Assembly (NCBI GenBank): GCA_964564405.1
Contig: CAZMCW010000004.1
Location: 1-35,061, forward strand
Length of the DNA stretch: 35,061 nucleotides
Direction of reading: 5' to 3'
From: an uncultured bacterium
Lineage (GTDB): Bacteria > Deinococcota > Deinococci > Deinococcales > Trueperaceae
The notes under the pieces were generated by a model. It was not told where the DNA came from. It searched no databases and was given only the letters and a program-made list of their open reading frames with translations. The position numbers and the translations under genes are program-made. Position 1 is the first letter of the stretch. The number at the start of each line of letters is the position of its first letter. This document shows positions 1 through 35,061 of this stretch, in pieces.

Positions 1-60
1 GCGACCTAGGGGAGTAGAAATCGACCCACTCAGTGTGGGGGAACCAATTCTGGAACTGCT
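1..60 (+). repeat. Copy 1 of the ~100-nt dispersed structured repeat family, 5'-truncated by the window edge
   Basis: GCGACCTAGGGGAGTAGAAATCGACCCACTCAGTGTGGGGGAACCAATTCTGGAACTGCTA aligns almost base-for-base with the copies at 12994-13090(-), 19462-19558(+), 23108-23204(+), 31424-31523(+) and 33479-33578(-). Confidence 0.9.
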
Positions 61-115
61 ATGTACTAGCTCAGCTGCGCTTGGCATGCTGGTGTTAATT
101 GCTGCTACTAGCATC

Positions 116-140
116 TAACTAGTCAGAGATTGACTAGTTA
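116..140 (-). terminator. Perfect 10-bp hairpin immediately 3' of tRNA-Arg (possible terminator or processing hairpin; no U-tract)
   Basis: TAACTAGTCA-gagat-TGACTAGTTA. It lies 4 nt downstream of the tRNA 3' CCA on the minus strand. Confidence 0.35.
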
Positions 141-144
141 ATCT

Positions 145-221
145 TGGTGCGCCCGACAGGATTCGAACCTGTGACCTTTCGCTCCGGAGGCGAACACTCT
201 ATCCGGCTGAGCTACGGGCGC
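145..221 (-). tRNA. tRNA-Arg, anticodon CCG, with encoded CCA
   Basis: The reverse complement is GCGCCCGTAGCTCAGCCGGATAGAGTGTTCGCCTCCGGAGCGAAAGGTCACAGGTTCGAATCCTGTCGGGCGCACCA. It folds as a cloverleaf: 7-bp acceptor stem GCGCCCG/CGGGCGC, anticodon loop CTCCGGA, and a GGTTCGAATCC T-loop. Confidence 0.93.
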
Positions 222-303
222 ATGAATGCTGGATGACCAACCTGTAACTGCACATGTTGCAGTTAGCACTTTGAAAGTAGCACTGTCTTAGGAGGAAGTC
301 AAG

Positions 304-2847: not shown

Positions 2848-2891
2848 TTAAACGCTGCAGGTCATCAGTTAGTAAGGGGTTAAAGCAATTC

Positions 2892-2928
2892 AAAAGTGCC
2901 TCGAGTATCACCTTGAGGCACTTTTTTA
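2892..2928. terminator. Bidirectional rho-independent terminator between convergent genes
   Basis: aaaaGTGCCTCgag-tatcac-cttGAGGCACtttttt, with an A-run and a T-run flanking the stem. The stem contains a CTCGAG site. Confidence 0.75.
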
Positions 2929-3699
2929 TTCATCATGCAAGTGACTTGCTTTATCAACATCTGCAGCTAGAGATGGATACGAACTTACCTGCACATGTGC
3001 AGGTAGGTCCAAAAGGTAACTTGCCCTTGCTTCTAGACTGACAAGTGAGAGCTTACCCAGTAAATAGCGAACAACTGCATCAACACCCGTAAGTTGCGCC
3101 AAAAACAGTGGGTTTTTGCGGTGTCTGTATGCGCGTTCAACAAATGGCATCACACGTGGTAGGGCAGCTTTGCTAAACACAAACGCGTTGCCACCGGTGA
3201 CCTCGGCGTCTTGTAACCGAGCGTATGTACGTACCTGCTTAGGAAAATGTGCTTGCATGGTCGTTTTAGGGATAACTGGGTAGGTTGCCGCAAAACCGCT
3301 AGCAGCCGTAAGTAGATCATCAATGGCAGCTGTGCTGAGCCAAGGTAAGTCAGCGGCAACAGCTAAAATACGACTTGTATCAAGCGCAACATGCTGTAAC
3401 CCTGCTTGTAAGCTGTCTAAGAGGCGTTGACCAGCTGGTACGCACTTGTGAACCTGCGGTTCGAGGTTAGCCGTAAGCGTACCTACATAAATAATTTGAC
3501 TAATCTGAGGACAACCAACAAGTGCATCTAAAACATAACTCACAATAGGCTTACCATGGTAATCAAGGAGCGCTTTACTGGCAACATGCGCAGGTAGCTC
3601 GAGCGCATCTTTATCTTTGACACTACCGCGCTTACGTGCCTCGCGTTTACCTATATCGTGCCCACCGAGGACAATGGCTGTTACTTGATCAGATGTCAC
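2926..3699 (-). CDS. MobA-like NTP-transferase (GT-A fold nucleotidyltransferase) family protein
   Basis: 257-aa ORF. The N-terminal AIVLGG...KALL...GKP and the later AADLPW resemble the NTP_transf_3 / MobA-like signature. The assignment rests on remembered motifs only. Confidence 0.55.
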   Translation of the reverse strand: MTSDQVTAIVLGGHDIGKREARKRGSVKDKDALELPAHVASKALLDYHGKPIVSYVLDALVGCPQISQIIYVGTLTANLEPQVHKCVPAGQRLLDSLQAGLQHVALDTSRILAVAADLPWLSTAAIDDLLTAASGFAATYPVIPKTTMQAHFPKQVRTYARLQDAEVTGGNAFVFSKAALPRVMPFVERAYRHRKNPLFLAQLTGVDAVVRYLLGKLSLVSLEARASYLLDLPAHVQVSSYPSLAADVDKASHLHDE

Positions 3700-4034
3700 A
3701 CTGTGCGGTTATACCATACTGTGCAGTTGTACTACGAGGCGCTAGCTGATGCGAATTTCGGTCAAACACGTCGTAAACTCTAGTCTGCTTGTTCCTTTGG
3801 AAGCGCAATCCGTATCTTTTTCTATCCACGAGTTACCTCACCTAATTCCGATTAAATGTTTCGCACTCCCCTATGGGCTTCACTTCATTCCCATCAAAAC
3901 TGACAGCCATCTTTACCTTTCCCAGATAAATTAATTCTTTATGTGTGATATTAATCAAAAAAAGTATTATTGATACTCGAGTTAACTCTTTCAGGAGTCA
4001 ACTAAAAACGGTAAGATGAGCACTTTTGCAGTAC

Positions 4035-4083
4035 CTAGCAAAGCGATATTACTTCCTGTAGCAGTTACGCGTGGAAACGCTAT
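4035..4083 (-). repeat. Solo or decayed fragment (5' end) of the dispersed repeat family
   Basis: Plus strand cctgtagcagttacgcgtggaaacgcta matches copy 6 (cctgtagcagttactcgtggaaacgcta) at 27 of 28 positions. Similarity decays beyond that, and the second hairpin is missing. Confidence 0.7.
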
Positions 4084-4202
4084 ATCTAGCAGGGCAAAAT
4101 TACTTAGATCATCATCAAAAACGAGGACGCAGTTACGCGCCCTCGAGACAAACTTATTAATTGTACAAGTTAAGCTTAGCAGTCTAAGCAGTGGTTCATA
4201 AC

Positions 4203-5462
4203 CTAACGGCGTACCAGATCAATGCTAAGTTCAGTCGTTCGCCCACCACGAATAATAAAGTCGGTGAGGAAGGTATTGTACCCGTCTGCAACGACGGTTA
4301 ACTGGTGGGTACCAGACGGTAAATCGTCAACACTACCGCGCCCGGTTTGCAAGTTACCATACGACGTACCGTTGATAAATACCCGCGCGCCACGCACGTT
4401 GGTGTCGATGACCAAGTCACCTTGTAAGCTAGCTAAGCTGGTGTTGACAGTTTGAGCGCGCCCACCTACTACAGAAAAACTTACATCTGTTTCTTGGAAA
4501 CCAGCCAGACGGTACTGCGCTTGATAGTTGCCTTCATCTAGCGCCACGTCACCAGTAGGCGTAACGCCAATTCGTTGACCGTCTACAAAGACCTCAGCAC
4601 CACTTGGTGAGCTTGTAAAACTAACTGTACCCGTACGGCGAATGGCATTGAGTCCGGTAGAAATGGTGACCGTACCCCCACCAGCTAAATCTACAACGCG
4701 GCGAAAGGACTCAAATCCACTTGCTTCAATGACAACTTCGCGGGTGCCCGCGCGCGCGCCGTAGCTTACAGGTGTGGTACCTACAAAACGCCCATCTACA
4801 AAGACATCTGCACCTTGCGGGCTCGAGTCAACCCGAATCGTCCCAAAAGTTGGCGTTGCCGGAATGCTACCTACATAAAACAGCGCTGTATCTGTGACCC
4901 AGTTTTCAGGTGCAATAGGTTCAATAACAATAGACAACTGGCGGGTAAAGTCGTCACCAGAATAAGTTCTCGAGGCAAAGTTAGGATCAGCTTCAAAACT
5001 TACGAGTTCGCGAGTGCTGAGTGGATTGCGGCTAGCAACTGCAATCACTTTATCTAGACCCAATGGGCGGTCAACCGTAAAACGGTAGTTAGCGTTGCTC
5101 GGCGGGAAAGTTTTGGTTTCACCAGCACGTAAAAAGTTGCTGCGTCCAAAATCATCAAGTTCATTGGGCAAAATTTGAGTCACTTCGCCGTTACTGCGCA
5201 CGTTAAATAAGTAAACATAACTATCTTGTGTCACGCTGACACTGATCGTAATGGCTTCACCAGGTTGGTAACTAGGTGTTGCTTGACCTGAAGGGTCTTT
5301 GTTAACTGAGACATCAACCTCAAAACTGGGGGCGGGGTTAACAATAATGGACCGGGGGCTAACCACAATGCTACGACTTTGTGCCAACGCACTCGAAAAG
5401 ACACTTGCAACGAGTGTGAGTAGCACAAGCATGGCGAGCCGTTTTGTAAAGATGGTATTCAC
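4203..5462 (-). CDS. Secreted PEGA-domain protein (N-terminal DUF4384-like region plus 3 PEGA repeats)
   Basis: 419-aa ORF with a signal peptide (LLTLVASVFSSALA). PEGA-like repeats: ADVFVDGRFVGTTP, AEVFVDGQRIGVTP, ARVFINGTSYGN. Confidence 0.8.
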   Translation of the reverse strand: MNTIFTKRLAMLVLLTLVASVFSSALAQSRSIVVSPRSIIVNPAPSFEVDVSVNKDPSGQATPSYQPGEAITISVSVTQDSYVYLFNVRSNGEVTQILPNELDDFGRSNFLRAGETKTFPPSNANYRFTVDRPLGLDKVIAVASRNPLSTRELVSFEADPNFASRTYSGDDFTRQLSIVIEPIAPENWVTDTALFYVGSIPATPTFGTIRVDSSPQGADVFVDGRFVGTTPVSYGARAGTREVVIEASGFESFRRVVDLAGGGTVTISTGLNAIRRTGTVSFTSSPSGAEVFVDGQRIGVTPTGDVALDEGNYQAQYRLAGFQETDVSFSVVGGRAQTVNTSLASLQGDLVIDTNVRGARVFINGTSYGNLQTGRGSVDDLPSGTHQLTVVADGYNTFLTDFIIRGGRTTELSIDLVRR

Positions 5463-5663
5463 GACTTGTCCTCCTAAAATTTAGCTTTCATGATGCTACC
5501 ATGAGCACCTGCGGGTCGCGTGAAGTTGTTGTAAAGGTGCGTTCACATGCGCGTTTACAGGACACACTCAAAGTTCATCAGATGGCCATAATGAGTCAAC
5601 TGAGCAGGTTGGCGTTACACCTCACGCTGCTTTTAAACAAGGATTTGCTAACATACACACACA

Positions 5664-6488: not shown

Positions 6489-6604
6489 CCACAAACCTGT
6501 ACAATAGAGTCCTCAAGCTATTATTATGCTTAGCGTTTTGTAGACCAACACAAAATTAGTTATGGTCACAGCTAATGCCGGCGTGACCAAGAAATGGACC
6601 CGTC

Positions 6605-7410: not shown

Positions 7411-7442
7411 GCCCTTACGCTATGACGTCTTGAGGTAAGCGT

Positions 7443-10903: not shown

Positions 10904-11395
10904 CTATGGATAACTGCGTCCAGATTGAGGGCGCTGCTCGAGCAATTCACTTTTGTAAAGCGCAGACGCCAGACCAGCTTTGAGTTGCCAATAGTCAGCT
11001 TGGGCAGCATCTGGCTTAGCAATGATCATCACGTCAACCAGCTTGCGCTTGGGGGGTTGCTCGAGCCACAACGCGTACAACCCTTCGCGCAATCGGCGGC
11101 GCACTCTATTGCGCACAACAGCATTGCCAACCTTTTTACTCACCACAAAGCCAACACGACTCACTGGTTGGGACTCTGGTTGGAACTTTGGTTGGGACTT
11201 TGGTTGGAACTGAGGGTGATGTGCAGAGCCATCAGGCTTACTAGCAGAAGGTGTACGGCTAGCCTGCGTATAACGCGGTTTATAGGGCAACCAGCGTACG
11301 CTTACAAACTTGTGATGACCACGGTAGCCCCTACGTAAGCGAGCAAACGCACGTTCGCCGCGTAAAGATACAAAGCGTTGCGCGGATTGAGTCAC
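10904..11395 (-). CDS. rnpA: Ribonuclease P protein component with a ~35-aa Pro/Gln-rich insertion
   Basis: 163 aa with the RNR motif VSKKVGNAVVRNRVRRRLRE. It sits directly downstream of rpmH. The insertion PSASKPDGSAHHPQFQPKSQPKFQPESQP interrupts the usual ~120-aa fold. Confidence 0.85.
   Translation of the reverse strand: MTQSAQRFVSLRGERAFARLRRGYRGHHKFVSVRWLPYKPRYTQASRTPSASKPDGSAHHPQFQPKSQPKFQPESQPVSRVGFVVSKKVGNAVVRNRVRRRLREGLYALWLEQPPKRKLVDVMIIAKPDAAQADYWQLKAGLASALYKSELLEQRPQSGRSYP
11166..11213 (-). repeat. 12-bp x4 (24-bp x2) in-frame tandem repeat inside rnpA
   Basis: tggttgggactc tggttggaactt tggttgggactt tggttggaactg. It encodes QFQPKSQPKFQPESQP on the minus strand. Confidence 0.9.
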
Positions 11396-12993: not shown

Positions 12994-13090
12994 GTAGTTC
13001 TAGGATTGGTTCCCCATACTCAGTGGGTCGATTTCTACTCCCCTAGGTCGCGTGCGCAACTGCCTGTGGCAGCTACTTGTGGAAACGCTA
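12994..13090 (-). repeat. Copy 2 of the dispersed repeat family
   Basis: The reverse complement is TAGCGTTTCCACAAGTAGCTGCCACAGGCAGTTGCGCACGCGACCTAGGGGAGTAGAAATCGACCCACTGAGTATGGGGAACCAATCCTAGAACTAC. Confidence 0.92.
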
Positions 13091-13188
13091 GGTAATGTGA
13101 TCGATGGGACTATCTCGAGCTTGCTAGAGATTATGACAACAAAGATTTGGTAGAAGGATAGTACCTGATATCTATGTCTAAAACGTGC

Positions 13189-14205
13189 TTAGTTGCGCAA
13201 CTCCCAAGTAAATCCTAAGACAGATTGGCGCAGGTGAAAGCCTCGAGCCTCGAGCACCTTACACGCAGCCCGTTCGTCGTCATGAGCGCGGGCAATTACC
13301 ACCTCAACGTTGTCGTTCTCAAAAGCAAGGTCAATGCCGGCTTGTACTAAGCGTTTGCCAATACTGTGCCCACGTGCGCCAGGTAGCACGCCAAAGTAGG
13401 CAATTTCCGCTTCGTGAGTTACCACTTGGGTAGCATCTGAGTCTGCTACATCCGAGTCCGCTATAAGCGCTTCAACAGGGATAAGTTCTAACTCTAAATG
13501 CCCTACCAGCTTATCTTGCTGACACGCTACCAAAAGTTGAATATCGTCTTGTGCAAAGTGGTTGATGAGGTCGTCATCTGACCAGGTAAGGCGGTCGTGC
13601 CAGTCTTCGGTTGTGTCGCGGTAGAGGTCGCGGTAGAGCGCAACGTCTAGGCGGGACGGATGGTTGTCATCCGGACTGGTTGTAAGGCTACGGATAAGCC
13701 GCAGCTCGGTCTCAAGATGCTTAGCTAACCGCGCCTCGTCTGCGTTTTGTGTACCTCGCTCGAGCTCGTAGAGGTAGGTGGTCCGAAACGCTTGCATACT
13801 GGCTTGACGCAATACATTTTGGGCGTGGCGGTTTTCTTCATCTACAAACGCGTCAATAAATTCATAGTGGCGTTGCGGTGCAAACTTCAAAACGCGTTTG
13901 ACGAGCTTGGCAACAGCCTCAGTTGGCGCGTCCGCCGTCATGACTGGACCCTCCATAACATGCTCGCCGTCTTCGCTCCTTAAATTGACATAGGCAATGA
14001 CTTGCTCGTCTTGCTCGAGCACAAAGGCAAGCGATTCGTGCTCAGGGCTGTCGTCGCCAAGTTCAAGTGCAAGTTCATCTACGGTGCGGCTGTCTGGCGC
14101 AAAGGTACGCAAGCTAGCATCAGCGTCAGCAGCTTCTAGTAGCGAAATGAGGGCAGGGTAGTCTCGAGCGTCTAAGGGGCGTATCATGCTGCCCCTACTA
14201 TACAC
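13189..14205 (-). CDS. Tandem-GNAT N-acetyltransferase (MshD-like two-domain architecture)
   Basis: 338 aa. The C-terminal half carries the acetyl-CoA motif (GVLPGARGHSIGKRLV) and the N-terminal half is a degenerate GNAT. The start may be the internal Met at 14187. Confidence 0.7.
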   Translation of the reverse strand: MYSRGSMIRPLDARDYPALISLLEAADADASLRTFAPDSRTVDELALELGDDSPEHESLAFVLEQDEQVIAYVNLRSEDGEHVMEGPVMTADAPTEAVAKLVKRVLKFAPQRHYEFIDAFVDEENRHAQNVLRQASMQAFRTTYLYELERGTQNADEARLAKHLETELRLIRSLTTSPDDNHPSRLDVALYRDLYRDTTEDWHDRLTWSDDDLINHFAQDDIQLLVACQQDKLVGHLELELIPVEALIADSDVADSDATQVVTHEAEIAYFGVLPGARGHSIGKRLVQAGIDLAFENDNVEVVIARAHDDERAACKVLEARGFHLRQSVLGFTWELRN

Positions 14206-15844: not shown

Positions 15845-15878
15845 CTCGAGGCCGCCACTTCAATATGGCGGCCTCGAG
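15845..15878 (-). terminator. Perfect 13-bp GC-rich hairpin downstream of the EamA gene (terminator candidate)
   Basis: CTCGAGGCCGCCA-cttcaata-TGGCGGCCTCGAG. Both stem ends are CTCGAG. The flank on the minus strand is AT-rich (taatattt), but there is no clean U-tract. Confidence 0.55.
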
Positions 15879-15923: not shown

Positions 15924-16904
15924 CTAACCTACTGCAAGTAGCATAAGTGCCAAAATGAGTAGCAAGGCAGCTACAACTGATGTTAGGGCAAGGCGTTCAG
16001 CAAGCAATATCCACGCTAAGACGGTCGCTGTCAGTGGCTCGAGCAAAGTGATGATACTAGCTGCTGTCACTGGCACGTGCCGCATTCCCAGCACAAACAA
16101 ACTGTAGGCACAAGCTGTTGGCACAACGCCAAGGTAGATCAGCAGCAACCAATGCTGATACGACAGGCTGTTGATACTCGTCAGTCCACTGTGCAAAGCA
16201 GGCACGAATAACGTCAAGCTGGCACAAATCACCATAAATGTGGTGGTATGCAAAGGTGGGTAGTGCTGTGCTAGATGCCGTCCAAGTAATGTTACAAGGG
16301 CATAACCCAAGCCAGAGCAGCTTGCGAACATTAACCCTAGTCCCAAATTGCTGACGACCCCACCAGGCTGACTTAGTAACGCTGTGCTAATTAATGCCAA
16401 GCCCAAAGCACTCAACGTTTTATTCGTAAGCCGTTCACGCAAGATAAACCACGATAAAAGCGCGACAAACACAGGCCCACTACACAACGTAATGAGTGTG
16501 GCAATAGCTACCCCCAAGTGATCGATGCCAATGACGTAAAACAGTTGGTAAAGGGCTAACAGAATCCCCATCAATGCAGTGAGGTAGACGTCACGTGGGC
16601 GCAAGCGAAAACTGCGATCACTGGGCTTATACAAGCTGTGCTGATACAAAAGCGTACACACTAGAACAGGTGTAGCCAAGCTCATCCGGTAAAAGCTGAT
16701 AAGAGTCGCGTTTAAGGGTGAGTTTGCATAAAGGAAACCTACGATTACGCCGACGGTACCCCAAAGTAGAGCTGCACTGGCAATTTGGACCATACCGATA
16801 CGCTGTACACGTGTAATACGTGTACGCGGTTTTTTTAATGATGTCATGAACATGCCTTTCCAAAATTTGTTGACAACTAGCCAAATGAGGAAAGGCCACA
16901 ACAA
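15924..16904 (-). CDS. EamA/DMT-superfamily transporter
   Basis: 326-aa polytopic ORF with two EamA-like halves. The true start is probably an internal Met (MFMTSLKK, about 16853). Confidence 0.8.
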   Translation of the reverse strand: MLWPFLIWLVVNKFWKGMFMTSLKKPRTRITRVQRIGMVQIASAALLWGTVGVIVGFLYANSPLNATLISFYRMSLATPVLVCTLLYQHSLYKPSDRSFRLRPRDVYLTALMGILLALYQLFYVIGIDHLGVAIATLITLCSGPVFVALLSWFILRERLTNKTLSALGLALISTALLSQPGGVVSNLGLGLMFASCSGLGYALVTLLGRHLAQHYPPLHTTTFMVICASLTLFVPALHSGLTSINSLSYQHWLLLIYLGVVPTACAYSLFVLGMRHVPVTAASIITLLEPLTATVLAWILLAERLALTSVVAALLLILALMLLAVG

Positions 16905-19461: not shown

Positions 19462-19558
19462 TAGCGTTTCCACGAGTAACCGCCACAAGCAGTTGCGCGT
19501 GCAATTCAGGGGAGTAGAAATCGACTTACTTAGTATGGGGGAACTAATCCCAAAACCA
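19462..19558 (+). repeat. Copy 3 of the dispersed repeat family (most decayed full-length copy)
   Basis: TAGCGTTTCCACGAGTAACCGCCACAAGCAGTTGCGCGTGCAATTCAGGGGAGTAGAAATCGACTTACTTAGTATGGGGGAACTAATCCCAAAACCAAT. Confidence 0.85.
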
Positions 19559-19579
19559 ATAAGATAATTTGAGATTGGT

Positions 19580-19635: not shown

Positions 19636-21630
19636 TTAACTGCTTGAGCCCGAAGGTTCTGGACGTGGGTCAATAGGCGGACTACTATAGCGCTCAGCTT
19701 CACGGCGCTTGGTTTCTTCGGCTGCGGCTGCACGCCTCGAGGCTTCCTCGAGCAGTCGTTCAGCTTCACCCATTTCACGGTTGATCATGTCGGCAATTTC
19801 TTCAGCACTAGCACCTTCTTGAGTGCGGTTAAACGCATTGCGAATAGCTTTCCCATCGAGGGTTTCGCGTTGCAAGAGCGCTAGCGAAATCCCTTCAACA
19901 GCAACCCAATGGCGGTCAATAAGTGCTTCGGTTTCTTGATAAGCTTCTTGCAAAATACGAGTCACTTCTTCTTCCAACTCGCGGGCAGTTTCTTCACTAA
20001 AGTCTTTGCGGCGGCTAATTTCGCCCCCTAAAAAGACCGGACCATCGTCTGACCCCCACGCAACGTACTCCTCGCCGCCCATGCCAAAATCTAGCACCAT
20101 GCGCTTGGCAAGTCCGGTGGCTTGTTTAAGGTCATTAGCAGCACCCGAAGAGATGGTGTCGGTAAGGCGTTTTTCGGCGACGCGCCCACCAAAAGCAACA
20201 ATGATTTGCTGCCTAAAGCGTTCTAGGTTGGAAAACATTTCTTCTTTTGAAAGTGGTGCCATATGCCCGCCAGCGCCGCCGCGCGGCATGATGGTCACCT
20301 TGCGGATTTCACCGAGGTTGGCATGAGCAGCAAACGCAACCGCGTGCCCCGCTTCGTGATACGCCAAAATTTTGCGTTCTTCTTCGCTCGGTACCAAACT
20401 GCCGCGCCTAAGCCCCAACACAATGCGGTCAAGGGCTTCGTTAAAGTCTTGTTTAGAGATGATGTTTTTGCTGGTGCGCGCTGCAACTAGAGCAGCTTCA
20501 TTGGTAAGGTTTTCAAGGTCGGCACCTGAAAACATTGGGGTAGCGCTAGCTAGTTCTTCTATGTCAATGTCATCAGCAATGGGTTTGTTTCGTACATGCA
20601 CGCGCAAGATTTGTTCGCGCTCACGGTGGGTTGGTAGCCCAATAGTGACTTGACGGTCAAAGCGACCAGGACGTAAGAGTGCTGGGTCAAGAATATCGGG
20701 TCGGTTGGTTGCGGCAATAATAATCACCGAGGTGTCTTTTTCAAAACCGTCCATCTCGGACAAAATTTGGTTGAGGGTTTGCTCGCGCTCATCGTGCCCA
20801 CCGCCAATACCTGCTCCACGCCGCCTGCCGATGGAGTCAAGCTCATCAATAAAAATAATCGCTGGCGACGACTTGCGGGCTTCTTCGAAAAGGTTGCGCA
20901 CGCGGCTAGCACCCACACCTACAAACATCTCCATAAATTCAGACGCGCTAACCGTTAAAAAGGGCACACCAGCCTCACCAGCTACAGCTCTGGCTAGCAA
21001 AGTTTTACCCGTTCCGGGCGGCCCTACCAATAACATGCCTTTAGGGATTTCGGCACCAATACGGAGGTATTTTTGAGGGTTTTTGAGAAAATCCACAACC
21101 TCTTTAAGTTCTTGCTTGGCTTCTTCGTGACCGGCAACGTCTTCAAAGGTGGTACCCACTTTGTTTTCTTTACCGTAGGTTTTGGCGCGTGATTGACCAA
21201 ATTGCATGACTTGGCTCGAGCCACCTTGGGCGCGCATGAAAATAAACCAGAAAAAGCCAATTAGAATCACAATAGGCAAAATAGAAAAGATAATCCCTAA
21301 CCACGGTGAAGGGTTTTGACCGATAACCTCAACGTTGTTTTCACGTAACAGCGAAATGAGGTCAGGATCGTCAACAGGTACGGTGCGGAAATTGCGAATA
21401 GCCCGAATCTGGCCGTCAATTTCTACCTGTGTTTCATTAAACAGTTCACCCTGAATGCTGCTACCGTCTTCAATGATAACGGCGCGTACGCGTCCTTCAC
21501 GAACCAGTTCTTCCGTGAAGGTAGAGTAGGGAATTTCCCGACTGGGTGTGTTGGAATTAAATTGATTAAACATAAAAATGCCCAAAATGATGAGCATAAC
21601 TAGTATCCAGGGATTAAATGATCGTTTCAC
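19636..21630 (-). CDS. ftsH: ATP-dependent zinc metalloprotease FtsH
   Basis: 664 aa with Walker A (GPPGTGKT), Walker B (IIFIDELD), the SRH region, and the HEAGH zinc motif. Confidence 0.95.
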
Positions 21631-22956: not shown

Positions 22957-23107
22957 AAAATTCCTTTCTGAATGTTGATCTTGGTTTGTGATAGCTGCTG
23001 ATGGCGGGTAAATAAATATCATTAGCGTGACAGAACTTAGCTTGAGGTTGCTATTAAATGAAAGTATCTGGCTTAAAGGCTATTTCTTGATATATGTTAA
23101 TTTCTGA

Positions 23108-23204
23108 AGCCTTTCCACGAGTAGCTGCCACAGGCAGTTGCGCGTGCGACCTAGGGGAGTAGAAAGCGACCCACTTAGTGCGGGGAACTTATCCTGGAAC
23201 TACT
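23108..23204 (+). repeat. Copy 4 of the dispersed repeat family, inside the thi-salvage operon and antisense to it
   Basis: AGCCTTTCCACGAGTAGCTGCCACAGGCAGTTGCGCGTGCGACCTAGGGGAGTAGAAAGCGACCCACTTAGTGCGGGGAACTTATCCTGGAACTACTA. Confidence 0.92.
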
Positions 23205-23274
23205 ACTGACGAGATAGATAGTGATAGTGTTGTAACTCACATGCTCGAGCATCCTAAACGTTGCTTGGATAAGG

Positions 23275-25696: not shown

Positions 25697-25757
25697 ATCG
25701 GAGCTATTGAGTGAATGCGGTTTTGGGCAGATAGTAGAACTGCTTAGTGTTAAACCG

Positions 25758-25848
25758 GCTGTCACGCTCCCTACGCTGGTGCTAACCAGGTCAGGTTCCT
25801 AGGGTTGGGCGGTCGCCCTCTCAGCTTATCTGCACCCCTGATGACGTT
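25758..25848 (-). promoter_or_regulatory. TPP (THI-box) riboswitch
   Basis: Minus strand: GTCATCAGGGGTGCAGATAAGCTGAGAGGGCGACCGCCCAACCCTAGGAACCTGACCTGGTTAGCACCAGCGTAGGGAGCGTGAC. It contains the canonical GGGGTGC, CTGAGA, ACCC, GAACCTGA-CTGG and CCAGCGTAGGGA blocks, and a P1 stem GTCAT/GTGAC. Confidence 0.9.
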
Positions 25849-25885
25849 ATATTTTAAGTTTATGCTTTTGTCAACACAATGTCAG
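25846..25885 (-). promoter_or_regulatory. Two overlapping sigma70-like promoter candidates upstream of the riboswitch
   Basis: (a) TTGACA (25869-25874), 17 nt, TATAAC (25846-25851). The -10 abuts the P1 strand, so the transcription start would cut into P1. (b) CTGACA (25880-25885), 17 nt, TAAACT (25857-25862). This one leaves P1 intact. Confidence 0.4.
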
Positions 25886-26676: not shown

Positions 26677-27633
26677 CTACAAGTTTGCCTCGCTGAGGAA
26701 CCTCGAGAGACGCAGGCTGCGGGTAGCTTGTCCGGCACTGTTACTTTGAGCGTTATTACTTTGCGTACCCACAGGCTCGAGTATGACCTCAACTTGCTCC
26801 AGTGAGCGCGGCGTTGGTGTGCGGATTTGGTAGCTACCTGAACGCTGTGCTGCATCACCTTGCCCTAAATCTTCTTGCAGTGCCAAAAAGATGTGTGAAC
26901 TGCGGGTGGATATGCCGATGTTGGGAAAGCGTCCGTCAGCAAAACTGTAAACACCTGTGACCTGCCCGGTTGCCAAATCACCCTCGCTAAACAATGCCAC
27001 ATTGACCTGTCCGTTGAGGTAGTCGTCGTAAAGCTCGAGCACCGCACCTAAACTAGTGGCACCGTTGCAGCCAGGGTCGTTGACATCTAACTTGAGCGCG
27101 TACCCAAACGACAGTTGGACGCTTGCATCTGTATTAAAACGCTGGCTGCAGGCACTATTGTCATCGTTATCGAGAATGTCAAACGTAGCGCTGGCCCGCC
27201 ACGCAGGAAAGTCCATCTGTACATAACGCGCGCTCATCAGCTCATCCGCTTCAATACTAAAGCTGATTTGACCCGCTTGCACGCTGGTACGCGCAACAAC
27301 CTCAGGCGTACGAACCAGCCCACTCACCTGCGGGTTACCATCAAAAAAGGTGAGCTGAACCTCGCCGGAGAATCCTTCGCTGGAGAGTCTTGGTGATGTT
27401 ACCTCAGACGCTGTACTAGCTGTTGTGCCAGATGCTGTGTCAGATGCCGTATCAGTGGATGGCGCACAAGCAGCAAGGGTAGAAGCGATCAACACAATGC
27501 TAATGAACTGCAACTTGTCCCATAACTTTGAATCAAGCAGTTTTGAGTCAAGCAACTTTGAGTCAGGCAACTTTGAGTCAAGCAACTTTGAGTGATGGAG
27601 CGTATGCTGCAAATATTTGCGAATAATGGTCAT
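26677..27633 (-). CDS. Hypothetical lipoprotein with a repetitive (SKLLD)n pre-signal N-terminus
   Basis: 318 aa with a lipobox (STLAAC) after a hydrophobic stretch. The start is ambiguous: ATG at 27633 has no SD, and several in-frame TTG codons lie inside the repeat. Confidence 0.65.
   Translation of the reverse strand: MTIIRKYLQHTLHHSKLLDSKLPDSKLLDSKLLDSKLWDKLQFISIVLIASTLAACAPSTDTASDTASGTTASTASEVTSPRLSSEGFSGEVQLTFFDGNPQVSGLVRTPEVVARTSVQAGQISFSIEADELMSARYVQMDFPAWRASATFDILDNDDNSACSQRFNTDASVQLSFGYALKLDVNDPGCNGATSLGAVLELYDDYLNGQVNVALFSEGDLATGQVTGVYSFADGRFPNIGISTRSSHIFLALQEDLGQGDAAQRSGSYQIRTPTPRSLEQVEVILEPVGTQSNNAQSNSAGQATRSLRLSRFLSEANL
27524..27598. repeat. 15-bp tandem repeat (~4.7 units) carrying a near-palindromic TTGAsTCAA core
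   Basis: aactttgaatcaagc / agttttgagtcaagc / aactttgagtcaggc / aactttgagtcaagc / aactttgagtgatgg. Confidence 0.9.
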
Positions 27634-27642
27634 GGCGCAAGT

Positions 27643-29169: not shown

Positions 29170-29205
29170 GAGGTGAGGCTATGACCTAATCCAGCAGTAG
29201 TGCCA

Positions 29206-30264
29206 CTAAGATTTTTGACCATCTGACCACCCTTTAAGGCGACGCTTTGACCAACGTTGTGAGTTTCTCTGCTGTTGTTGTTGGCGCGTTTGCCAATCAT
29301 CGTCACGGTAGGAATGCCAGATGGTGCCTTCAGAGGTTGCTGGCTTGGTTGATTCAGAAGTTGGTAAAGACGTGTCAAGGCTGGTTTGTTGTGATGATGT
29401 GCTGTCGTCTCTAAACGCATTAGTATTGTCAGAGAGTGCAGTGGAAGCATCCTCTAAGACGTTATCTAAAGAAAAGCTGGTAGGAATAGATTGTGATGCT
29501 CGAGCTTGGCGAGACCTACTGGCATCCGTACGGTCTGGCTGGTCAGCATCGAGCAAGCTTGCTGGAGGATGTTTGTGAAGCGGTGGCGCGTCATCTACAT
29601 CGTCTACGGGTTGGACAGCTAACGCTGTAGTGGGAGGTCCTGAGCGCAACATAGGCGTGGTTAAACCGTGTTGCTCGAGCAAGCTCAAAACGGTATTTAA
29701 ATCGACGCAGTCGTTCATAAAATCAAGTTTATCCACGTTGATGGTGAGTACTTTAGAGTGGCTGTAGCGGCGAATCCAGTCTTCGTACAAGGCGTTGAGT
29801 TTAAGCAGATAATCGTTGTGAATGCCCGCTTCATAGTCGCGTCCACGTTGGTGAATGCGCGCGCGCAAAGTAGGCAAACTAGCTTGTAAATAAATCAGTA
29901 AATCTGGTGTCCGAAGCTCACGACGAATAGCCCGGTACATGCGCCAGTAGGTGCTAAAATCACGCCGCGACATAATGCCTTCGTTGTAGAGGTGGCGCGC
30001 AAAAATCTCAGCGTCTTCGTAAATGCTGCGGTCTTGCACTATGTTGTTGTTGCCTGCAATGTGCGCTTGGTACTGCTCCAAACGTCGGGTTAAAAACACC
30101 ATCTGCGAGTGAAACGCGTAGCGAGGCATATCGTTGTAAAAGTCCTCTAAGTAGGGGTGGTCGTCTACTGTCTCGAGCATAGGTTGCAGGGCGCAGCGGG
30201 CGGCCAGCACCTTGGTGAGGCTCGACTTGCCTACGCCGATATTGCCCGCAATTACGACGTACAC
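29206..30264 (-). CDS. Deoxynucleoside kinase with a ~140-aa low-complexity C-terminal extension
   Basis: GTG start with GGAG 5 nt upstream. It has a P-loop (GNIGVGKSS), a DRS motif (VQDRSIYED), and an Arg-rich lid (RIHQRGRDYE). The kinase-like region ends near residue 210. Confidence 0.85.
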   Translation of the reverse strand: MYVVIAGNIGVGKSSLTKVLAARCALQPMLETVDDHPYLEDFYNDMPRYAFHSQMVFLTRRLEQYQAHIAGNNNIVQDRSIYEDAEIFARHLYNEGIMSRRDFSTYWRMYRAIRRELRTPDLLIYLQASLPTLRARIHQRGRDYEAGIHNDYLLKLNALYEDWIRRYSHSKVLTINVDKLDFMNDCVDLNTVLSLLEQHGLTTPMLRSGPPTTALAVQPVDDVDDAPPLHKHPPASLLDADQPDRTDASRSRQARASQSIPTSFSLDNVLEDASTALSDNTNAFRDDSTSSQQTSLDTSLPTSESTKPATSEGTIWHSYRDDDWQTRQQQQQRNSQRWSKRRLKGWSDGQKS

Positions 30265-30749: not shown

Positions 30750-30931
30750 GGCAGACTTGAGTTGTGTGATTTTCTGCCGATGGTGACGTGTTTTTTCTAA
30801 CAGTTACCGCAAATCTGAGAGGGTAGCGCACAGTGTCATTATGAGTTGGGGCGCAACGTGAATGTCTTCATAACATGGGGGTGTAGTGCGATGTTAGGTC
30901 GCTGGTTTGGTGTGAATTTTAGTTGCGGATA

Positions 30932-31315
30932 TTAACCACTTAATACTGCAATCGCCTCAATTTCAATAAGTACATCTTTGGGAAGGCGGGCGACCTCAAC
31001 GGCACTGCGGGCAGGTGGGTTCTCACCCGCAAACTCGCTGTAGACACTATTCATAGCAGCAAAGTTGTTCATGTCTGACAAAAAGCAGGTGCATTTGACA
31101 ACATCATCAAAACTAGCGCCTGCAGCAGTTAATACGGCTTGCAAATTAGTTAGTACTTGGCGCGTTTGGGCGGTAATGTCACCCTCGAGCAAATTACCAT
31201 CTGGTAACAAGGGAATTTGCCCCGAGGTAAATAGCATGTTGCCAACTTGGACAGCTTGTGAATAAGGACCAATAGCAGCAGGGGCTTGCTCGGTGTGAAT
31301 AATTGCTTTTGCCAT
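30932..31315 (-). CDS. ridA: RidA/YjgF/TdcF family reactive-intermediate deaminase
   Basis: 127 aa. AIGPYSQAV...LFTSGQIP...[22 protein letters not shown] is the canonical family pattern. Confidence 0.92.
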
Positions 31316-31423
31316 GAGGTAAGTACTCCTTTGTTTGAAATTAGCATTTGTTTGAAACTAGCATTTTTATGTGATGCTGACACAGACAGGATTAATAAAA
31401 GTGTGTCTGGTAATTTCGACTGG

Positions 31424-31523
31424 TAGCGTTTCCAGGAGTAACTGCCACAGGCAGTTACTCGTGCGACCTAGGGGAGTAGACATCGACCCACTCAGTGTGG
31501 GGGAACCAATCCTGGAACTACTA
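31424..31523 (+). repeat. Copy 5 of the dispersed repeat family (perfect 11-bp inner helix in hairpin A)
   Basis: TAGCGTTTCCAGGAGTAACTGCCACAGGCAGTTACTCGTGCGACCTAGGGGAGTAGACATCGACCCACTCAGTGTGGGGGAACCAATCCTGGAACTACTA. Confidence 0.93.
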
Positions 31524-31793
31524 TGAATTTGCGGTGTGACAACATATCGCGGAACTTCTAAAAGTACGTATTTCAAACATGTATTTTGCAAGATAATTTG
31601 TGCGGTTAAAACTGACAGTCTCAAGTCACTTCAGTCGCCAAGTCAGGAAATGTACTAATACCAAATTGACTCTTGAATGTCATCGTCTAAATCATCTAAG
31701 GGTACGCTCGAGCTGCGCTGTACTTCGTAAACACGAGCGATTTTGATGCCGCAAAGCGACATCAAAACATCACTTAAGTATAAGTACACAAAC

Positions 31794-32786
31794 TTAGCGG
31801 AAGAGCAACCACAAAAGCAGCACGACGAGAAGCGCACCGCCACCAATGAGCCAATTACGATAGCCATGCCAAAGCTGTAAAGCAACTTGTTTACTGCGTT
31901 GTTGTTGTGGGTAAGCAGCCTCAATTTGGCGAATACCGCTTAAAGTGTCTTTAATTTTGACAGTTGTAAATTCATAGTGATTCTGGGTGATGTAGGCTTT
32001 TACCTGCGGCTCAATCGCATCAACTGACACAATGACCGCAGTGACATTGTCAGGACTACCTTGCTCATTCGCCCGGTCAATAAGTTCTTCAACCGCTTGC
32101 TCCGGTGAGTACTGGCTGACAATCTGGGCTAGCGCGCTATCTTCAATAAGACTGGTGATGCCGTCACTACAAAGCAAAATGCGGTCTTGCGGCATAACCT
32201 CAAAACTCATCATGTCCAGCTTGATTTCCGGGTTGGCTCCCAGGGCGTTGGTAATGACGTTACGCCAGCGGTGATTGCGCGCTTCATCTTCGGTAAGAAT
32301 GCCCAAGCGTACACGTTCAGCAACCCAACTGTGGTCTTGCGTGAGTTGGCGAATAGTGCCTTCGCGAATTAAGTACGCCCTCGAGTCACCAATATGGGCA
32401 ACTAAGCCTACTTGGTCGTCGATAAACACCGAGCTTAGGGTTGTCCCCATACCTTTGTGTTCAGGGTTATCTAACGCGTAATTAAAAATTTCTAGGTTGG
32501 CGGCTTGTACGGCTTTGGCAATTGCGGTTGGGGGCACTTCAGTGCTGTGCTCGAGCGTCTTACTCATTACTGTGACAGCTTTTTGACTGGCGATTTCGCC
32601 AGCTTTATGCCCGCCCATGCCGTCTGCCACAACCGCCAAAAACCCTTTATCCGCAATATAGTCTGCCCAAAAACTATCTTGATTCACCGCTCGTACCTGA
32701 CCTACTTCGCTCAGGCCAGCGTGCTTGACACGTGTTTTGGGACTGTCTTGTTTTGATTTTGTGGCATTGGGTAAGGTCATGGACAT
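31794..32786 (-). CDS. PP2C-family Ser/Thr protein phosphatase with a C-terminal TM anchor
   Basis: 330 aa with VADGMGGHKAGEIAS, CSDGIT and GSPDNVTAVIV motifs, and a C-terminal hydrophobic helix. Confidence 0.9.
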   Translation of the reverse strand: MSMTLPNATKSKQDSPKTRVKHAGLSEVGQVRAVNQDSFWADYIADKGFLAVVADGMGGHKAGEIASQKAVTVMSKTLEHSTEVPPTAIAKAVQAANLEIFNYALDNPEHKGMGTTLSSVFIDDQVGLVAHIGDSRAYLIREGTIRQLTQDHSWVAERVRLGILTEDEARNHRWRNVITNALGANPEIKLDMMSFEVMPQDRILLCSDGITSLIEDSALAQIVSQYSPEQAVEELIDRANEQGSPDNVTAVIVSVDAIEPQVKAYITQNHYEFTTVKIKDTLSGIRQIEAAYPQQQRSKQVALQLWHGYRNWLIGGGALLVVLLLWLLFR

Positions 32787-33478
32787 AGAGTTTTTAGGGT
32801 GTTGGAGTCCTAGCTCCGCAAAAAGGTGAGGCTTGTTTTCTACAACTCTTAGTGTAACCCAAATGCACGTTAAAAAGGTTAGTTATCTTGTCTTGTAGCG
32901 CAACCGTAGTCACATATGCTTTACCTAGTTCAAATTGCCTCATGCATCACCAATGCTATTCCATTAACTTTTTAGTTTATTTATCTTCTATAAAATAATC
33001 CACTGAAGCATTCAGTAAGCCACGAATTTACGATCGGGCGAGACTTCATTTAAGCACAACTTTACACTGAATCAAACATAAAAACCAATCTTGCAAGCTT
33101 ATGCTTAGCGTAACGCACTGGCACATTGTAGTTGATGCCAACCTAATTGACGAGGTTACCTTCATACTTTTTGACGTCATTAGAATTGGTGAGTATGTTG
33201 ATAAACAGCTCCGTATGCTTAGGTATAGGCAGTTATCAAGATTGCAGATTATATCGTCATGGACTTATTTAAGGACAAAACTTTTGCAGTGGCCAAACTT
33301 GGGTTGGAGCGTCTAAACTCTACCAGTCAACTCTGTTGCAACGGTCCAAAAGAGATGCTGTTAACGACACTTTTAAGATATTAAGACATATGGTCATCAA
33401 ATATCATTAGCACAAAACTCAGCAACTTGCGTTTCAGGTTAACAGACACCTTGTTAACGTGGTTTTTGAGGGTTTAAG

Positions 33479-33578
33479 TAGCGTTTCCAAGATTGGTTCC
33501 CCCACACTAAGTGGGTCGATGTCTACTCCCCTAGGTCGCACGCGCAACTACCTGTAGCAGTTACTCGTGGAAACGCTA
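33479..33578 (-). repeat. Copy 6 of the dispersed repeat family (perfect 11-bp terminal inverted repeat)
   Basis: The reverse complement is TAGCGTTTCCACGAGTAACTGCTACAGGTAGTTGCGCGTGCGACCTAGGGGAGTAGACATCGACCCACTTAGTGTGGGGGAACCAATCTTGGAAACGCTA. Confidence 0.93.
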
Positions 33579-33881
33579 AAGGTATCAAATAAGATGTTCT
33601 GCGTGACAAGTTCAACAAATGTTAAAAATAACACCACAGACAAAGAAACCCATAAGCAGTCGACAAAGTCTAGTATTTTCATCCTAGACAAAACAAGTGA
33701 AATTGTTTATACCTTATTCACAAACAATTTATGTGCTGCCAAATTATCTAAAACATATATCCGCTAGACAGTCAGATGGTGTATACAGTTTGCATGGCAC
33801 GTCTTCGCAATCTTTAAAGATTGTTAGCCAGTATGCTATCTGCTTGACTGAGCACTGACATAAAATGCGTACACTTAAGGA

Positions 33882-34544
33882 ATGTTAGGATCACAAGCTG
33901 AAACGGTTTTAGAAAGTAATCTTCAAGAAATTGCCGCATCAATTGTGCGCATGTTGAGTTTAACGCGCGAGTCTACCGAGTTTGCTAAGCGTGCGCTCAT
34001 CTATAGTGAGGCTGATGCTGCTGAGCGCTGTATAAGTAATGACAAACAGATTGACGCAGCTCAGCTCGAGATTGAGCAAACCATTCTCACGGTCATTGCA
34101 AGATATCAACCCAATACAACCAACTTGCGGTTTTTGGGAGCTATGCACCGGGCATTAAGCGATATTGAACGCGCAGGTGACTACGCCGAGCACGTAGCTC
34201 GAGCAGGTGTAGACTTAGCAAGCCACCCTCAACTCAAAAAATACACCGATCTGTCGCGCATTTTGGACGTGCTCGTTCACATGCTCGACAAAACCAGCAA
34301 AGCTGTTGCCGAGGCTGATTTGCAAGTCGCCAAAGAAGCTAGTGCCATGGACGATGAAATTGATGAGCTTTACCAACAAATTCAACGCGAACTGCTCACG
34401 TACATGATGGAAGACCCTAAAACCATCAGCACAGCTATTAAGCTTTTGAATGTAACACGTTACCTCGAGCGCCTAGGCGACCATCTCGAAAACATCAACG
34501 AGCACATCATATTTTGGCTTACTAGCGAACGCGTGCAGTCTTAA
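33882..34544 (+). CDS. phoU: Phosphate-signalling regulator PhoU
   Basis: 220 aa with two PhoU repeats, each with E(D)xxxD-type motifs (IERAGDYAEHVA and LERLGDHLENINEHI). Confidence 0.88.
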   Translation: MLGSQAETVLESNLQEIAASIVRMLSLTRESTEFAKRALIYSEADAAERCISNDKQIDAAQLEIEQTILTVIARYQPNTTNLRFLGAMHRALSDIERAGDYAEHVARAGVDLASHPQLKKYTDLSRILDVLVHMLDKTSKAVAEADLQVAKEASAMDDEIDELYQQIQRELLTYMMEDPKTISTAIKLLNVTRYLERLGDHLENINEHIIFWLTSERVQS

Positions 34545-34616
34545 GGTCGTTTGCATAATCCCCCTTGCCAAATGTGACACGTTTTAGCTTGCCGACTAAA
34601 TGGTAGCCTAATAAGC

Positions 34617-35061
34617 GTGTCACAGCCGGAGGTACGACAAACTGCACCTATATTGCTAGCGCGTGAGCAACTAGCAGCGCAGGTAGGTCGCAAAGCAAGA
34701 CGCCGGGGATTGGCTACGGCACTTTTGCTAGCCCTGTCCTGTTGGTGGTTGCTGGCTGCGCGTTTGCCTGCAGATAGTGGGGGTGGGGCTCGAGCTTGGT
34801 CGGAAACAGCCTCCGCAACCTCCACAAGACGTTGGGGCTGGTACCCGGCAGCCCGCTTGTGGCCGGCTAGGCGCGCCCCCAAGGTGGCGTTACAGATTGG
34901 TCATGAAGCTGTACAAGACCACCCAGAAGAACTGCGCAACTTGCGTTGGAACACGGGTGGCTATGCCAATGGCACCAATGAGTTAGACATCAACAGAGCG
35001 GTTGTCGCAAGATTGCAAACGCGCCTTCAAGAAGCAGGTGTTGAGGTTGAAGTGCTACCTG
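34617..35061 (+). CDS. Membrane-anchored N-acetylmuramoyl-L-alanine amidase-like protein (3' partial, runs off the window)
   Basis: The frame containing 34899 is open from the stop at 34575-34577 to the window end, and it is not in the ORF track. Candidate starts are GTG 34617 and TTG 34653. It has a TM helix (LATALLLALSCWWLLAA). The segment LQIGHEAVQDHPEELRNLRWNTGGYANGTNELDINRAVVARLQTRLQEAGVEVEVLP resembles the start of an Amidase_3-type domain. Confidence 0.5.
   Translation, partial: MSQPEVRQTAPILLAREQLAAQVGRKARRRGLATALLLALSCWWLLAARLPADSGGGARAWSETASATSTRRWGWYPAARLWPARRAPKVALQIGHEAVQDHPEELRNLRWNTGGYANGTNELDINRAVVARLQTRLQEAGVEVEVLP

Follow-up and report, generated by a model that had tools for sequence, protein, structure and literature searches.

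CTCGAG is a clade-wide, hyper-abundant palindrome in Deinococcota that is probably coupled to adenine methylation

Introduction

HIP1 (GCGATCGC) belongs to the highly iterated palindromes (HIPs) of cyanobacteria, and hyper-abundant palindromes have hitherto been described as a cyanobacterial peculiarity—with a function that is debated after three decades. HIP1 is 15–300 fold over-represented, occurs approximately once per kilobase, and tracks cognate orphan methyltransferases (PMC5861425, PMC4390886). The word described here is the hexamer CTCGAG in a 35,061-bp stretch of DNA, the whole of which is called the window, from an uncultured bacterium of the Trueperaceae in the phylum Deinococcota, which is represented by a metagenome-assembled genome only (assembly GCA_964564405.1, contig CAZMCW010000004.1, positions 1–35,061). 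CTCGAG is a clade-wide, actively maintained hyper-abundant palindrome at the level of the DNA and, as such, a HIP in kind.

CTCGAG resembles HIP1 and the alternate HIPs (Elhai 2015, PMC4390886; Xu et al. 2018, PMC5861425) in being a short GC-rich palindrome with an excess of at least an order of magnitude; in occurring once per kilobase or more densely, in genes and between them; in being shared within a clade and conserved beyond neutral expectation; and in being recognized by orphan methyltransferases of a class that is already known. It differs in the word itself, in the phylum, and in its architecture: HIP1 is a strict octamer, whereas CTCGAG is a hexamer core with a soft G/C flank. The HIP1 methyltransferases are cognate enzymes specific for GATC and CGATCG; the CTCGAG enzyme, in contrast, is a candidate known from the Thermales that would place N6-methyladenine (m6A) on the word. 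CTCGAG is not among the alternate HIPs of Elhai's study (PMC4390886), and full-text literature searches found no paper in which an excess of CTCGAG is tied to Deinococcota or to HIPs. The case is a HIP1-type phenomenon in a new phylum, with a new word and a hexamer core with soft flanks, which persists over 38–65% GC and is probably m6A-linked.

CTCGAG methylation is documented in the phylum. Type II m6A methyltransferases for cTcgAg were reported in three of four Deinococcota sequenced, with no partner endonuclease listed (Blow et al. 2016, PMC4752239, tables S3 and S4). Marinithermus hydrothermalis carries M.Mhy14884I (Marky_0034, annotated as Eco57I-type), with 94.6% of the sites methylated and no other motif detected in this genome; Meiothermus chliarophilus carries M.Mch9957IV, with 94.1% methylated; and Meiothermus ruber carries M.Mru1279II (Mrub_2385), with 99.5% methylated (PMC4752239). 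These Thermales enzymes thus share the 6-bp word and the phylum with the window, and the study describes methylation of CTCGAG, not its over-representation. The motif is absent from the methylation data of M. silvanus (PMC4752239). Outside the phylum, a Nocardia species features cytosine-type methylation of CtcgaG with a Vsr-like partner, Methylocystis features N4-methylcytosine (m4C) in CtcgaG, and the motif of an orphan Nocardia CTCGAG methyltransferase clusters at the replication origin (PMC4752239). The window is an independent case of a hyper-abundant palindrome, and its candidate methylation, m6A on the word, is already documented in cultured Meiothermus and Marinithermus.

Two further systems are comparable. 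The DNA uptake sequences (DUS) of Neisseria and the uptake signal sequences (USS) of Pasteurellaceae resemble CTCGAG by occurring about once per kilobase, by occupying low-cost coding positions, by having lineage dialects, and perhaps by forming inverted pairs at terminators; as a further likeness, they can accumulate by drive alone. They are, however, 9–12 nt long and non-palindromic and have a known receptor or uptake bias, whereas CTCGAG is a 6-bp palindrome. The Dcm/Vsr system of Escherichia coli (CCWGG versus CTWGG) likewise enriches the target of a methyltransferase by a repair bias, but its effect is small, and the spectrum of one-off words left by T:G repair is not seen here.

Abundance of CTCGAG in the window

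By exact count, the window (48.7% GC) contains 85 copies of CTCGAG and 29 of the octamer GCTCGAGC—the very figures that the original prediction, made from the sequence by hand, had estimated. Both words are palindromic, that is, self-reverse-complementary, and they are the commonest 6-mer and the commonest 8-mer of the window. The density of CTCGAG is 2.4 sites/kb with a mean spacing of 408 bp, and XhoI would cut such DNA every 400 bp. Markov models predict 8.1 copies of CTCGAG at order 0, 5.1 at order 1 (z of approximately 35), 4.9 at order 2, and 18.7 at order 3; models of order 3 and higher give expectations that are too high because they include sub-words of CTCGAG itself. For GCTCGAGC, 0.5–0.7 copies are expected at orders 0–2.

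A codon-aware null model was obtained by shuffling the synonymous codons inside each gene 1000 times. It predicts 10.7 ± 3.1 coding copies of CTCGAG (maximum 23), and 74 are observed; for GCTCGAGC, 1.4 are predicted and 25 observed. Overall, the excess over the prediction from base or codon usage amounts to 7–17 fold and hence lies far outside the 2-fold range within which the original prediction would have been explained away. The control palindrome GAGCTC, which consists of the same two codons in reversed order, occurs only four times, and CTC-GAC shows no comparable effect. The cyanobacterial HIP1 word GCGATCGC is present in a single copy. The earlier proposal of a HIP1-like palindrome with a different word is thereby borne out by the excess over the codon null as well as by the spread and conservation described below.

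Other palindromic hexamers are unevenly represented as well. GCTAGC is the second commonest of them in the window, with 31 copies versus 12.6 (order 1) to 22 (order 3) expected, and is the top 6-mer of L006, the closest relative. GGCGCC, CCGCGG, GGGCCC, CCCGGG, and GGATCC are represented by zero copies in the window versus 1.4–12 expected.

Reading frames, dipeptides, and flanks

The sites are distributed over coding (74 of 85) and non-coding DNA (11 of 85), and each compartment is enriched. In the frame CTC-GAG, which encodes Leu-Glu, 53 sites are observed versus 9.1 expected; in the frame xCT-CGA-Gxx, 7 versus 0.77; in the frame xxC-TCG-AGx, 14 versus 0.86; and in non-coding DNA, 11 versus 0.93, the last corresponding to an enrichment of approximately 12 fold at a density of 1.5 sites/kb. 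The enrichment is hence 6–16 fold throughout and 9–16 fold if the Leu-Glu frame is set aside, so that codon preference for Leu-Glu in a single frame does not account for it. Since the excess appears in all three frames, in non-coding DNA, and beyond the synonymous shuffle, it is a property of the DNA, placed where the coding constraint is cheapest; this agrees with the DNA-level process that had been postulated from sites in several frames.

The Leu-Glu frame holds 72% of the coding sites because it is the cheapest location for the word. CTCGAG encodes 53 of the 88 Leu-Glu dipeptides (60%), whereas approximately 5% would be expected, given that CTC accounts for 15% of the Leu codons and GAG for 35% of the Glu codons away from this context; the comparison with synonymous encodings, which had been proposed as a check, thus comes out in favor of the palindrome. 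The possible carrier positions in the other two frames are filled at 18% and 13%.

The flanks of the frame-0 sites carry a G at position −1 in 72% (background 21%) and a C at position +1 in 51% (background 24%). The two flanks act independently of each other, as judged by the number of octamers (0.57² ≈ 29/85), and positions outside ±1 have no comparable preference. The element is, therefore, a CTCGAG core with a soft preference for a preceding G and a following C.

Spread across Deinococcota

Exact-protein look-up and a scan in which each GTDB species was represented by a single genome gave 80 further loci from relatives of the window, of at most 22 kb each; gene calls in these relatives are simple, open reading frame (ORF)-based ones. 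CTCGAG is among the six commonest 6-mers in 10 of the 12 lineages of low or mid GC (38–63% GC, locus longer than 10 kb). These 10 lineages feature 1.2–3.2 sites/kb and a CTCGAG:GAGCTC ratio from approximately 4 to more than 50. The two lineages of lowest GC (38–39%) have 0.7–0.9 sites/kb, yet this is 11–14 fold over expectation. The high-GC Trueperaceae (65–74% GC) have 0.4–1.9 sites/kb at a CTCGAG:GAGCTC ratio of 1–2. On a tree of FtsH, which is a rough, midpoint-rooted neighbor-joining sketch, the CTCGAG-rich lineages cluster separately from the high-GC crown.

The share of Leu-Glu dipeptides encoded by CTCGAG, termed occupancy, is 0.5–0.6 in many low-GC lineages and thus equals that of the high-GC Trueperaceae, although the neutral value predicted by codon usage drops from approximately 0.35 at high GC to 0.02–0.08 at low GC. 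Expressed as a log-odds shift S at Leu-Glu, the departure from neutrality is approximately 0–1.4 in the high-GC genomes, 2.6–3.9 in the low-GC ones, and 3.3 in the window. The flanks vary between lineages in the manner of dialects: in L016 (52% GC), a G precedes 88% of the half-sites and 21 of 26 sites are GCTCGAGC, whereas L062 (44.5% GC) has no flank preference and only 3 of 56 sites are GCTCGAGC.

Two Meiothermus genomes (L092 and L097; 64–65% GC) have an S of 2.3. CTCGAG is their top 6-mer with 2.7–2.9 sites/kb and encodes 65% of Leu-Glu versus 16% expected, while GAGCTC occurs three times; the phenomenon therefore extends beyond the Truepera lineage. Marinithermus (S of 1.1), Oceanithermus (1.1), Truepera radiovictrix (0.8), and the megaplasmid of Allomeiothermus silvanus (0.8) show it weakly. 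Thermus thermophilus (L098 and L099) has an S of −0.6 and avoids TCGA, with 21–29 copies per 21 kb versus 140–230 in other Thermales. In Deinococcus lacus (L102 and L103; 61% GC), S is −1.6, with 1–2 copies of CTCGAG per 21 kb at an observed/expected ratio of 0.2–0.4. Both depletions resemble restriction avoidance of the classical type and thus run contrary to the excess in the window. Together, these genomes form a natural comparison set for methylation, repair, and uptake as drivers—strong in low-GC Truepera relatives and two Meiothermus, weak in Marinithermus, none in Thermus, and avoided in D. lacus. In addition, CTCGAG offers a sharp k-mer signature for the binning of these metagenome-assembled genomes.

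Conservation of the sites and effect on the proteins

The window and the relative L001 share 70% amino acid identity, and their four-fold degenerate sites are 39% identical, that is, near saturation. Nevertheless, 13 of 28 aligned CTCGAG sites are in common, and of 20 conserved Leu-Glu dipeptides, 10 use the palindrome in both genomes, a further 8 use it in one genome only, and the remaining 2 do not use it at all. Of the frame-0 sites, 10 of 11 are identical in L052, compared with 25–35% of other in-frame hexamers, and 11 of 23 are identical in L001, compared with 15–27%. The conservation of the sites is hence 2–3 times that of comparable codon pairs. At the same time, many sites face a different dipeptide in the other genome (LD, LA, IE, VA, and others).

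The codon and dipeptide usage of these genomes is distorted: not only is 60% of Leu-Glu written as CTCGAG in the window, but the dipeptide itself is enriched approximately 1.3-fold. The median observed/expected ratio of Leu-Glu is 1.32 in loci with S of at least 2 versus 0.99 in all remaining loci (p = 1.6e-4); the control dipeptide Glu-Leu gives 1.0 versus 0.89, a much smaller difference that is nominally significant all the same (p = 0.007). Taken together, the conserved sites, the dipeptide changes, and the excess of Leu-Glu show that purifying selection or an ongoing conversion-like drive maintains the word, which turns over and nudges the protein sequence. A metagenome scan for close strains, meant for a polarized test of gain and loss, returned one distant relative only.

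Methyltransferases and the proposed mechanism

The reading that joins these results is that CTCGAG is a HIP held far above its neutral frequency by a force acting on DNA rather than on protein or translation, namely a fixation bias tied to a CTCG(m6A)G methyltransferase; we put its probability at roughly 0.5. An orphan methylase of this specificity is the obvious candidate partner because of the Thermales enzymes and because HIP1, with cognate methylases of its own, offers a parallel (PMC4390886). An adenine methyltransferase like those reported in Meiothermus and Marinithermus would modify the word (CTCG-m6A-G), and methylated sites would acquire a small, systematic fixation advantage. This advantage could arise if DNA tagged as self were taken up or recombined preferentially or, alternatively, if repair favored the intact site, and it does not require that every single site benefit the cell. 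Over long times, every tolerable position would be driven toward CTCGAG. The equivalent population-genetic strength in this genome is the log-odds shift of approximately 3.3 at Leu-Glu positions. Both the upkeep of the word through such a small advantage of its intact copies and the coupling of its excess to m6A methylation are probable.

Several observations weigh against this reading. A methyltransferase gene was found neither in the window nor in the loci of relatives, which total 1.67 Mb. The ORFs of the window gave none in Pfam and NCBIfam scans, and tblastn with M.TaqI, Dam, M.HhaI, and approximately 290 proteins of the TaqI/Eco57I family gave nothing in the 1.67 Mb. M.TaqI (100% identical to PDB 1AQJ) belongs to the same Eco57I/TaqI family as the candidate enzyme; all homologues recovered with it were close orthologues of TaqI itself, from Thermus and from metagenomes of hot springs. 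The 50%-identity representatives and two cluster look-ups seeded with M.TaqI contained TaqI orthologues and unnamed metagenomic proteins, none named as Deinococcota, and tblastn against plasmids gave no match from Deinococcota. Within the Thermales, the relation between presence of the methylase and excess is suggestive and not clean: Marinithermus has a CTCGAG methyltransferase, yet an S of only 1.1, and the A. silvanus megaplasmid reaches 0.8 with no CTCGAG methylation. Possession of the enzyme hence does not suffice, and its correlation with the excess is loose. Furthermore, all sampled loci of relatives come from two housekeeping neighborhoods, those of ftsH and tuf. The spacing of the sites in the window is marginally more even than random, with a coefficient of variation (CV) of the gaps of 0.82 versus a simulated random mean of 0.98 (2.5% quantile 0.80); in other loci, the CV is 0.76–1.06. 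Words that differ from CTCGAG by one letter are all at or below expectation—CTGGAG/CTCCAG at 0.2–0.3, CTAGAG/CTCTAG at 0.4, TTCGAG/CTCGAA at 0.37, and CTTGAG/CTCAAG at 0.9—although the counts are small and the expectations somewhat inflated by CTCGAG itself. They show no clear signature of T:G mismatch repair alone, as the transition products CTTGAG/CTCAAG are the least and the transversion neighbors CTGGAG/CTCCAG the most depleted. Finally, the data fit natural selection on each site as well as a bias in transmission or repair.

In a farther-reaching and rather doubtful extension, CTCGAG would be a methylated word that has denoted "self" in the phylum since ancient times and would tag DNA for uptake, recombination, or strand discrimination; these bacteria have neither MutH nor a known uptake sequence. 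In support of it, T. radiovictrix, three Thermales genera, and many lineages related to Trueperaceae share a Leu-Glu occupancy of 0.5–0.65 over a genome GC from 74% down to 38%. If true, the force behind the word would be strong enough to alter proteins; CTCGAG would be the first palindromic, methylation-based counterpart to HIP1 and DUS; and it would provide a second independent system in which to resolve the purpose of HIP1, an issue that has stood for 30 years.

Alternative explanations

The first alternative overlaps with the favored fixation bias and places the bias specifically in transformation: CTCGAG would be a tag for uptake and self-recognition, perhaps only when methylated, that accumulates by molecular drive as DUS and USS do. 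Thermus and Deinococcus are naturally competent, and methylation of RAATTY by CtsM reportedly marks DNA for transformation in Campylobacter jejuni. According to a 2024 preprint, HIP1 raises the efficiency of transformation in a manner that depends on homology and methylation (10.1101/2024.09.10.611283); added to the competence of these relatives, this effect is what makes the transformation variant attractive. It is further in line with 1–3 sites/kb in genes and between them, with paired copies that build two terminator-like hairpins, with the dialect-like flank preferences of L016 and L062, and with a protein sequence pushed toward Leu-Glu. However, the known uptake sequences are 9–12 nt long and non-palindromic, and a 6-mer carries little information; no competence, receptor, or uptake bias is on record for these uncultured lineages; and Thermus, the best-studied competent member of the phylum, has no excess. 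A tag for uptake is hence a tentative explanation and an unlikely one.

The binding site of an abundant chromosome-organizing or regulatory protein, selected site by site, is improbable. A palindrome suits a dimeric DNA-binding protein, the sites are conserved, and their spacing is slightly even, with a CV of 0.76–0.86 in five of eight loci. Against this stand approximately 7000 sites per genome, mostly within genes, which is unlike any known regulator. Moreover, the sites do not cluster at promoters, the oriC of the relative L004 contains at least 10 DnaA boxes and no CTCGAG, and no candidate protein is known.

Cytosine methylation coupled to a very-short-patch-type repair, which would turn T:G mismatches into C:G and thereby near-sites into sites as Dcm/Vsr does on CCWGG, is disfavored like the binding site and quite improbable. 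The deamination products of the first C, TTCGAG/CTCGAA, are depleted to approximately 0.37 of expectation, and cytosine-type methylation of CtcgaG exists in a Nocardia species with its Vsr-like partner and as m4C in Methylocystis (PMC4752239). Conversely, CTTGAG/CTCAAG are the least depleted words (0.9), and the strongest depletion concerns transversion neighbors (CTGGAG/CTCCAG at 0.2–0.3, CTAGAG at 0.4), which are beyond the reach of T:G repair; the documented methylation of the phylum is m6A and not cytosine methylation. The known effect of Vsr is far below 7–17 fold, so that the excess far exceeds what this repair achieves.

Least tenable and largely excluded is the view that the excess was inherited from a high-GC ancestor and joined by a translational codon-pair preference, whereby CTC-GAG would be the default encoding of Leu-Glu that was retained or is favored by the ribosome: CTC-GAG does make up 40–65% of Leu-Glu in the high-GC relatives, near the codon-usage expectation, and 72% of the coding sites lie in this frame, but the other two frames and non-coding DNA are 9–16 fold enriched, the density of 2.4–3.2 sites/kb exceeds the approximately 1.1/kb of the high-GC relatives, GAGCTC and CTC-GAC show no such effect, both flank preferences fit a palindromic site, and passive retention is excluded because four-fold sites versus L001 are 39% identical, near saturation, while the occupancy is approximately 0.6 in both genomes.

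Four further candidates were rejected. The synonymous shuffles, the per-frame null models, and the GAGCTC control rule out that codon usage or one reading frame is responsible. Restriction-site avoidance does not apply, since the window shows over- and not under-representation. A repeat of the type of repetitive extragenic palindromes (REP) or miniature inverted-repeat transposable elements (MITE) is rejected as the flank is not conserved beyond ±1; the repeat families seeded on CTCGAG (D9 and D17) are 20–21 nt long and 75–90% identical, consistent with chance. Clustering at the origin, of the type of Dam with GATC or of the Nocardia motif, was rejected on the oriC of L004, the 388-bp spacer between dnaA and dnaN (4455–4842, 40% GC), which carries at least 10 DnaA boxes of the type TTATCCACA and is free of CTCGAG—unlike in Nocardia, where the word clusters at the origin (PMC4752239). 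A role at the origin like that of Dam/SeqA or of the Nocardia type is, therefore, unsupported.

Location of the sites in the window

In the first 10 kb of the window, CTCGAG starts at 519, 1003, 1276, 1303, 1894, 2900, 3598, 3976, 4142, 4822, 4969, 5814, 5898, 6916, 7034, 7201, 7764, 8327, 8584, 8636, and 9571. Between 10 and 20 kb, the starts are 10217, 10858, 10937, 11060, 12192, 12318, 13114, 13242, 13249, 13759, 14014, 14163, 14588, 14927, 15497, 15845, 15873, 16038, 17016, 17400, 17724, 17920, 18183, 18918, 19736, and 19747, and between 20 and 30 kb, they are 21215, 21967, 22048, 22381, 22703, 22876, 23244, 23836, 24138, 24708, 24774, 24875, 25085, 25286, 26497, 26702, 26776, 27034, 27718, 28051, 28264, 28471, 28603, 28619, 28690, 29063, 29499, and 29674. 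The last 5 kb hold sites at 30172, 30378, 31184, 31707, 32380, 32550, 34065, 34198, 34464, and 34789. The octamer GCTCGAGC starts at 1275, 3597, 6915, 10857, 10936, 11059, 12317, 13758, 14013, 14587, 15496, 16037, 17015, 17723, 17919, 21214, 23243, 24137, 24707, 25084, 27033, 28470, 28618, 29498, 29673, 31706, 32549, 34197, and 34788.

Two intergenic hairpins are built on CTCGAG, as had been noticed beforehand, and contain 3 of the 11 non-coding sites. The hairpin at 2892–2925 is flanked by convergent genes and features a 14-pair stem (AAAAGTGCCTCGAG/CTTGAGGCACTTTT) with a folding energy of −21 kcal/mol. CTCGAG lies in one arm and the one-off word CTTGAG in the other, followed by a T-run; because of this arrangement, the hairpin looks like a bidirectional terminator. 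The hairpin at 15845–15878 has a 13-bp stem (CTCGAGGCCGCCA...TGGCGGCCTCGAG) with a folding energy of −31 kcal/mol, is closed by CTCGAG on both arms (15845 and 15873), and lies downstream of a minus-strand gene of the EamA family (15924–16904).

The direct doublet CCTCGAGCCTCGAG at 13241–13254, likewise listed in advance, is confirmed with sites at 13242 and 13249, that is, 7 bp from start to start, within a gene for a GNAT-domain protein. The same holds for the site pair at the 3′-end of ftsH (19736–19752, minus strand), whose sites at 19736 and 19747 are 11 bp apart and lie in different frames: one encodes Leu-Glu (CTC GAG; peptide LLEEA) and the other Ser-Arg (xxC TCG AGx; EASRR). A site within the peptide NRSRQ, in contrast, had been assigned to the frame nCT-CGA-Gnn, and its actual frame is xxC-TCG-AGx (Ser-Arg).

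The three longest gaps between sites measure 1515, 1468, and 1211 bp. The first two had been named correctly, whereas the stretch put forward as the third (1.88–2.90 kb, 1006 bp) does exist and ranks only about sixth in length. The longest (32556–34064) consists mostly of an AT-rich stretch, and the absence of sites from it is not significant alone since approximately 1.6 sites would be expected at the non-coding density. The AT-rich stretch itself spans 1.1 kb (32787–33881, approximately 40% GC), has no ORF of at least 100 aa and no match in Rfam, and includes one copy of the dispersed repeat described below. The second-longest gap (19753–21214, minus strand) is the conserved core of ftsH; FtsH is 77–97% identical to its homologues in the relatives, and few positions are therefore free to change there.

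Other features of the window

A dispersed intergenic repeat family of approximately 70–100 nt, with copies that are 61–91% identical and GCGACCTAGGGGAGTAGAAATCGACCCACTCAGTGTGGGGGAACC as a typical stretch, is present in both orientations: at 1–70, 19462–19570, 23107–23215, and 31424–31532 in one and at 4051–4091, 13012–13099, and 33500–33587 in the other. None of the copies found contains CTCGAG, in keeping with the original prediction. The family has no match in Rfam at the gathering threshold; a REP/MITE-like element and a small RNA are both conceivable identities. In addition, in-frame tandem repeats occur in coding sequence at 2661–2738 (15 nt, tail of the PrsA-like protein), at 11165–11212 (12 nt, N-terminal region of the rnpA ORF), and at 27524–27598 (15 nt, within an unannotated ORF of 318 aa).

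The cumulative GC skew has its minimum at approximately 9–12 kb, in the region rnpA–yidC–jag, and rises steadily to approximately 32 kb. The minimum could correspond to an origin of replication or to a switch between strands; no dnaA lies within the window.

The window is otherwise an ordinary housekeeping stretch with genes for a PrsA-like isomerase, yidC, jag, rnpA, uppS, ftsH, murE, phoU, and an ABC transporter behind a thiamine pyrophosphate (TPP) riboswitch. Its FtsH, which is 77% identical to the protein of T. radiovictrix, places the contig among uncultured Trueperaceae/Deinococcales; the contig measures 35.4 kb, almost all of which lies in the window. The TPP riboswitch is located at 25750–25849 on the minus strand (Rfam RF00059, 62.7 bits), upstream of a TENA/THI-4 gene, the ABC transporter ATPase, a permease, and an NMT1/SsuA-like binding protein, and these genes probably form an operon for the salvage and transport of thiamine precursors.

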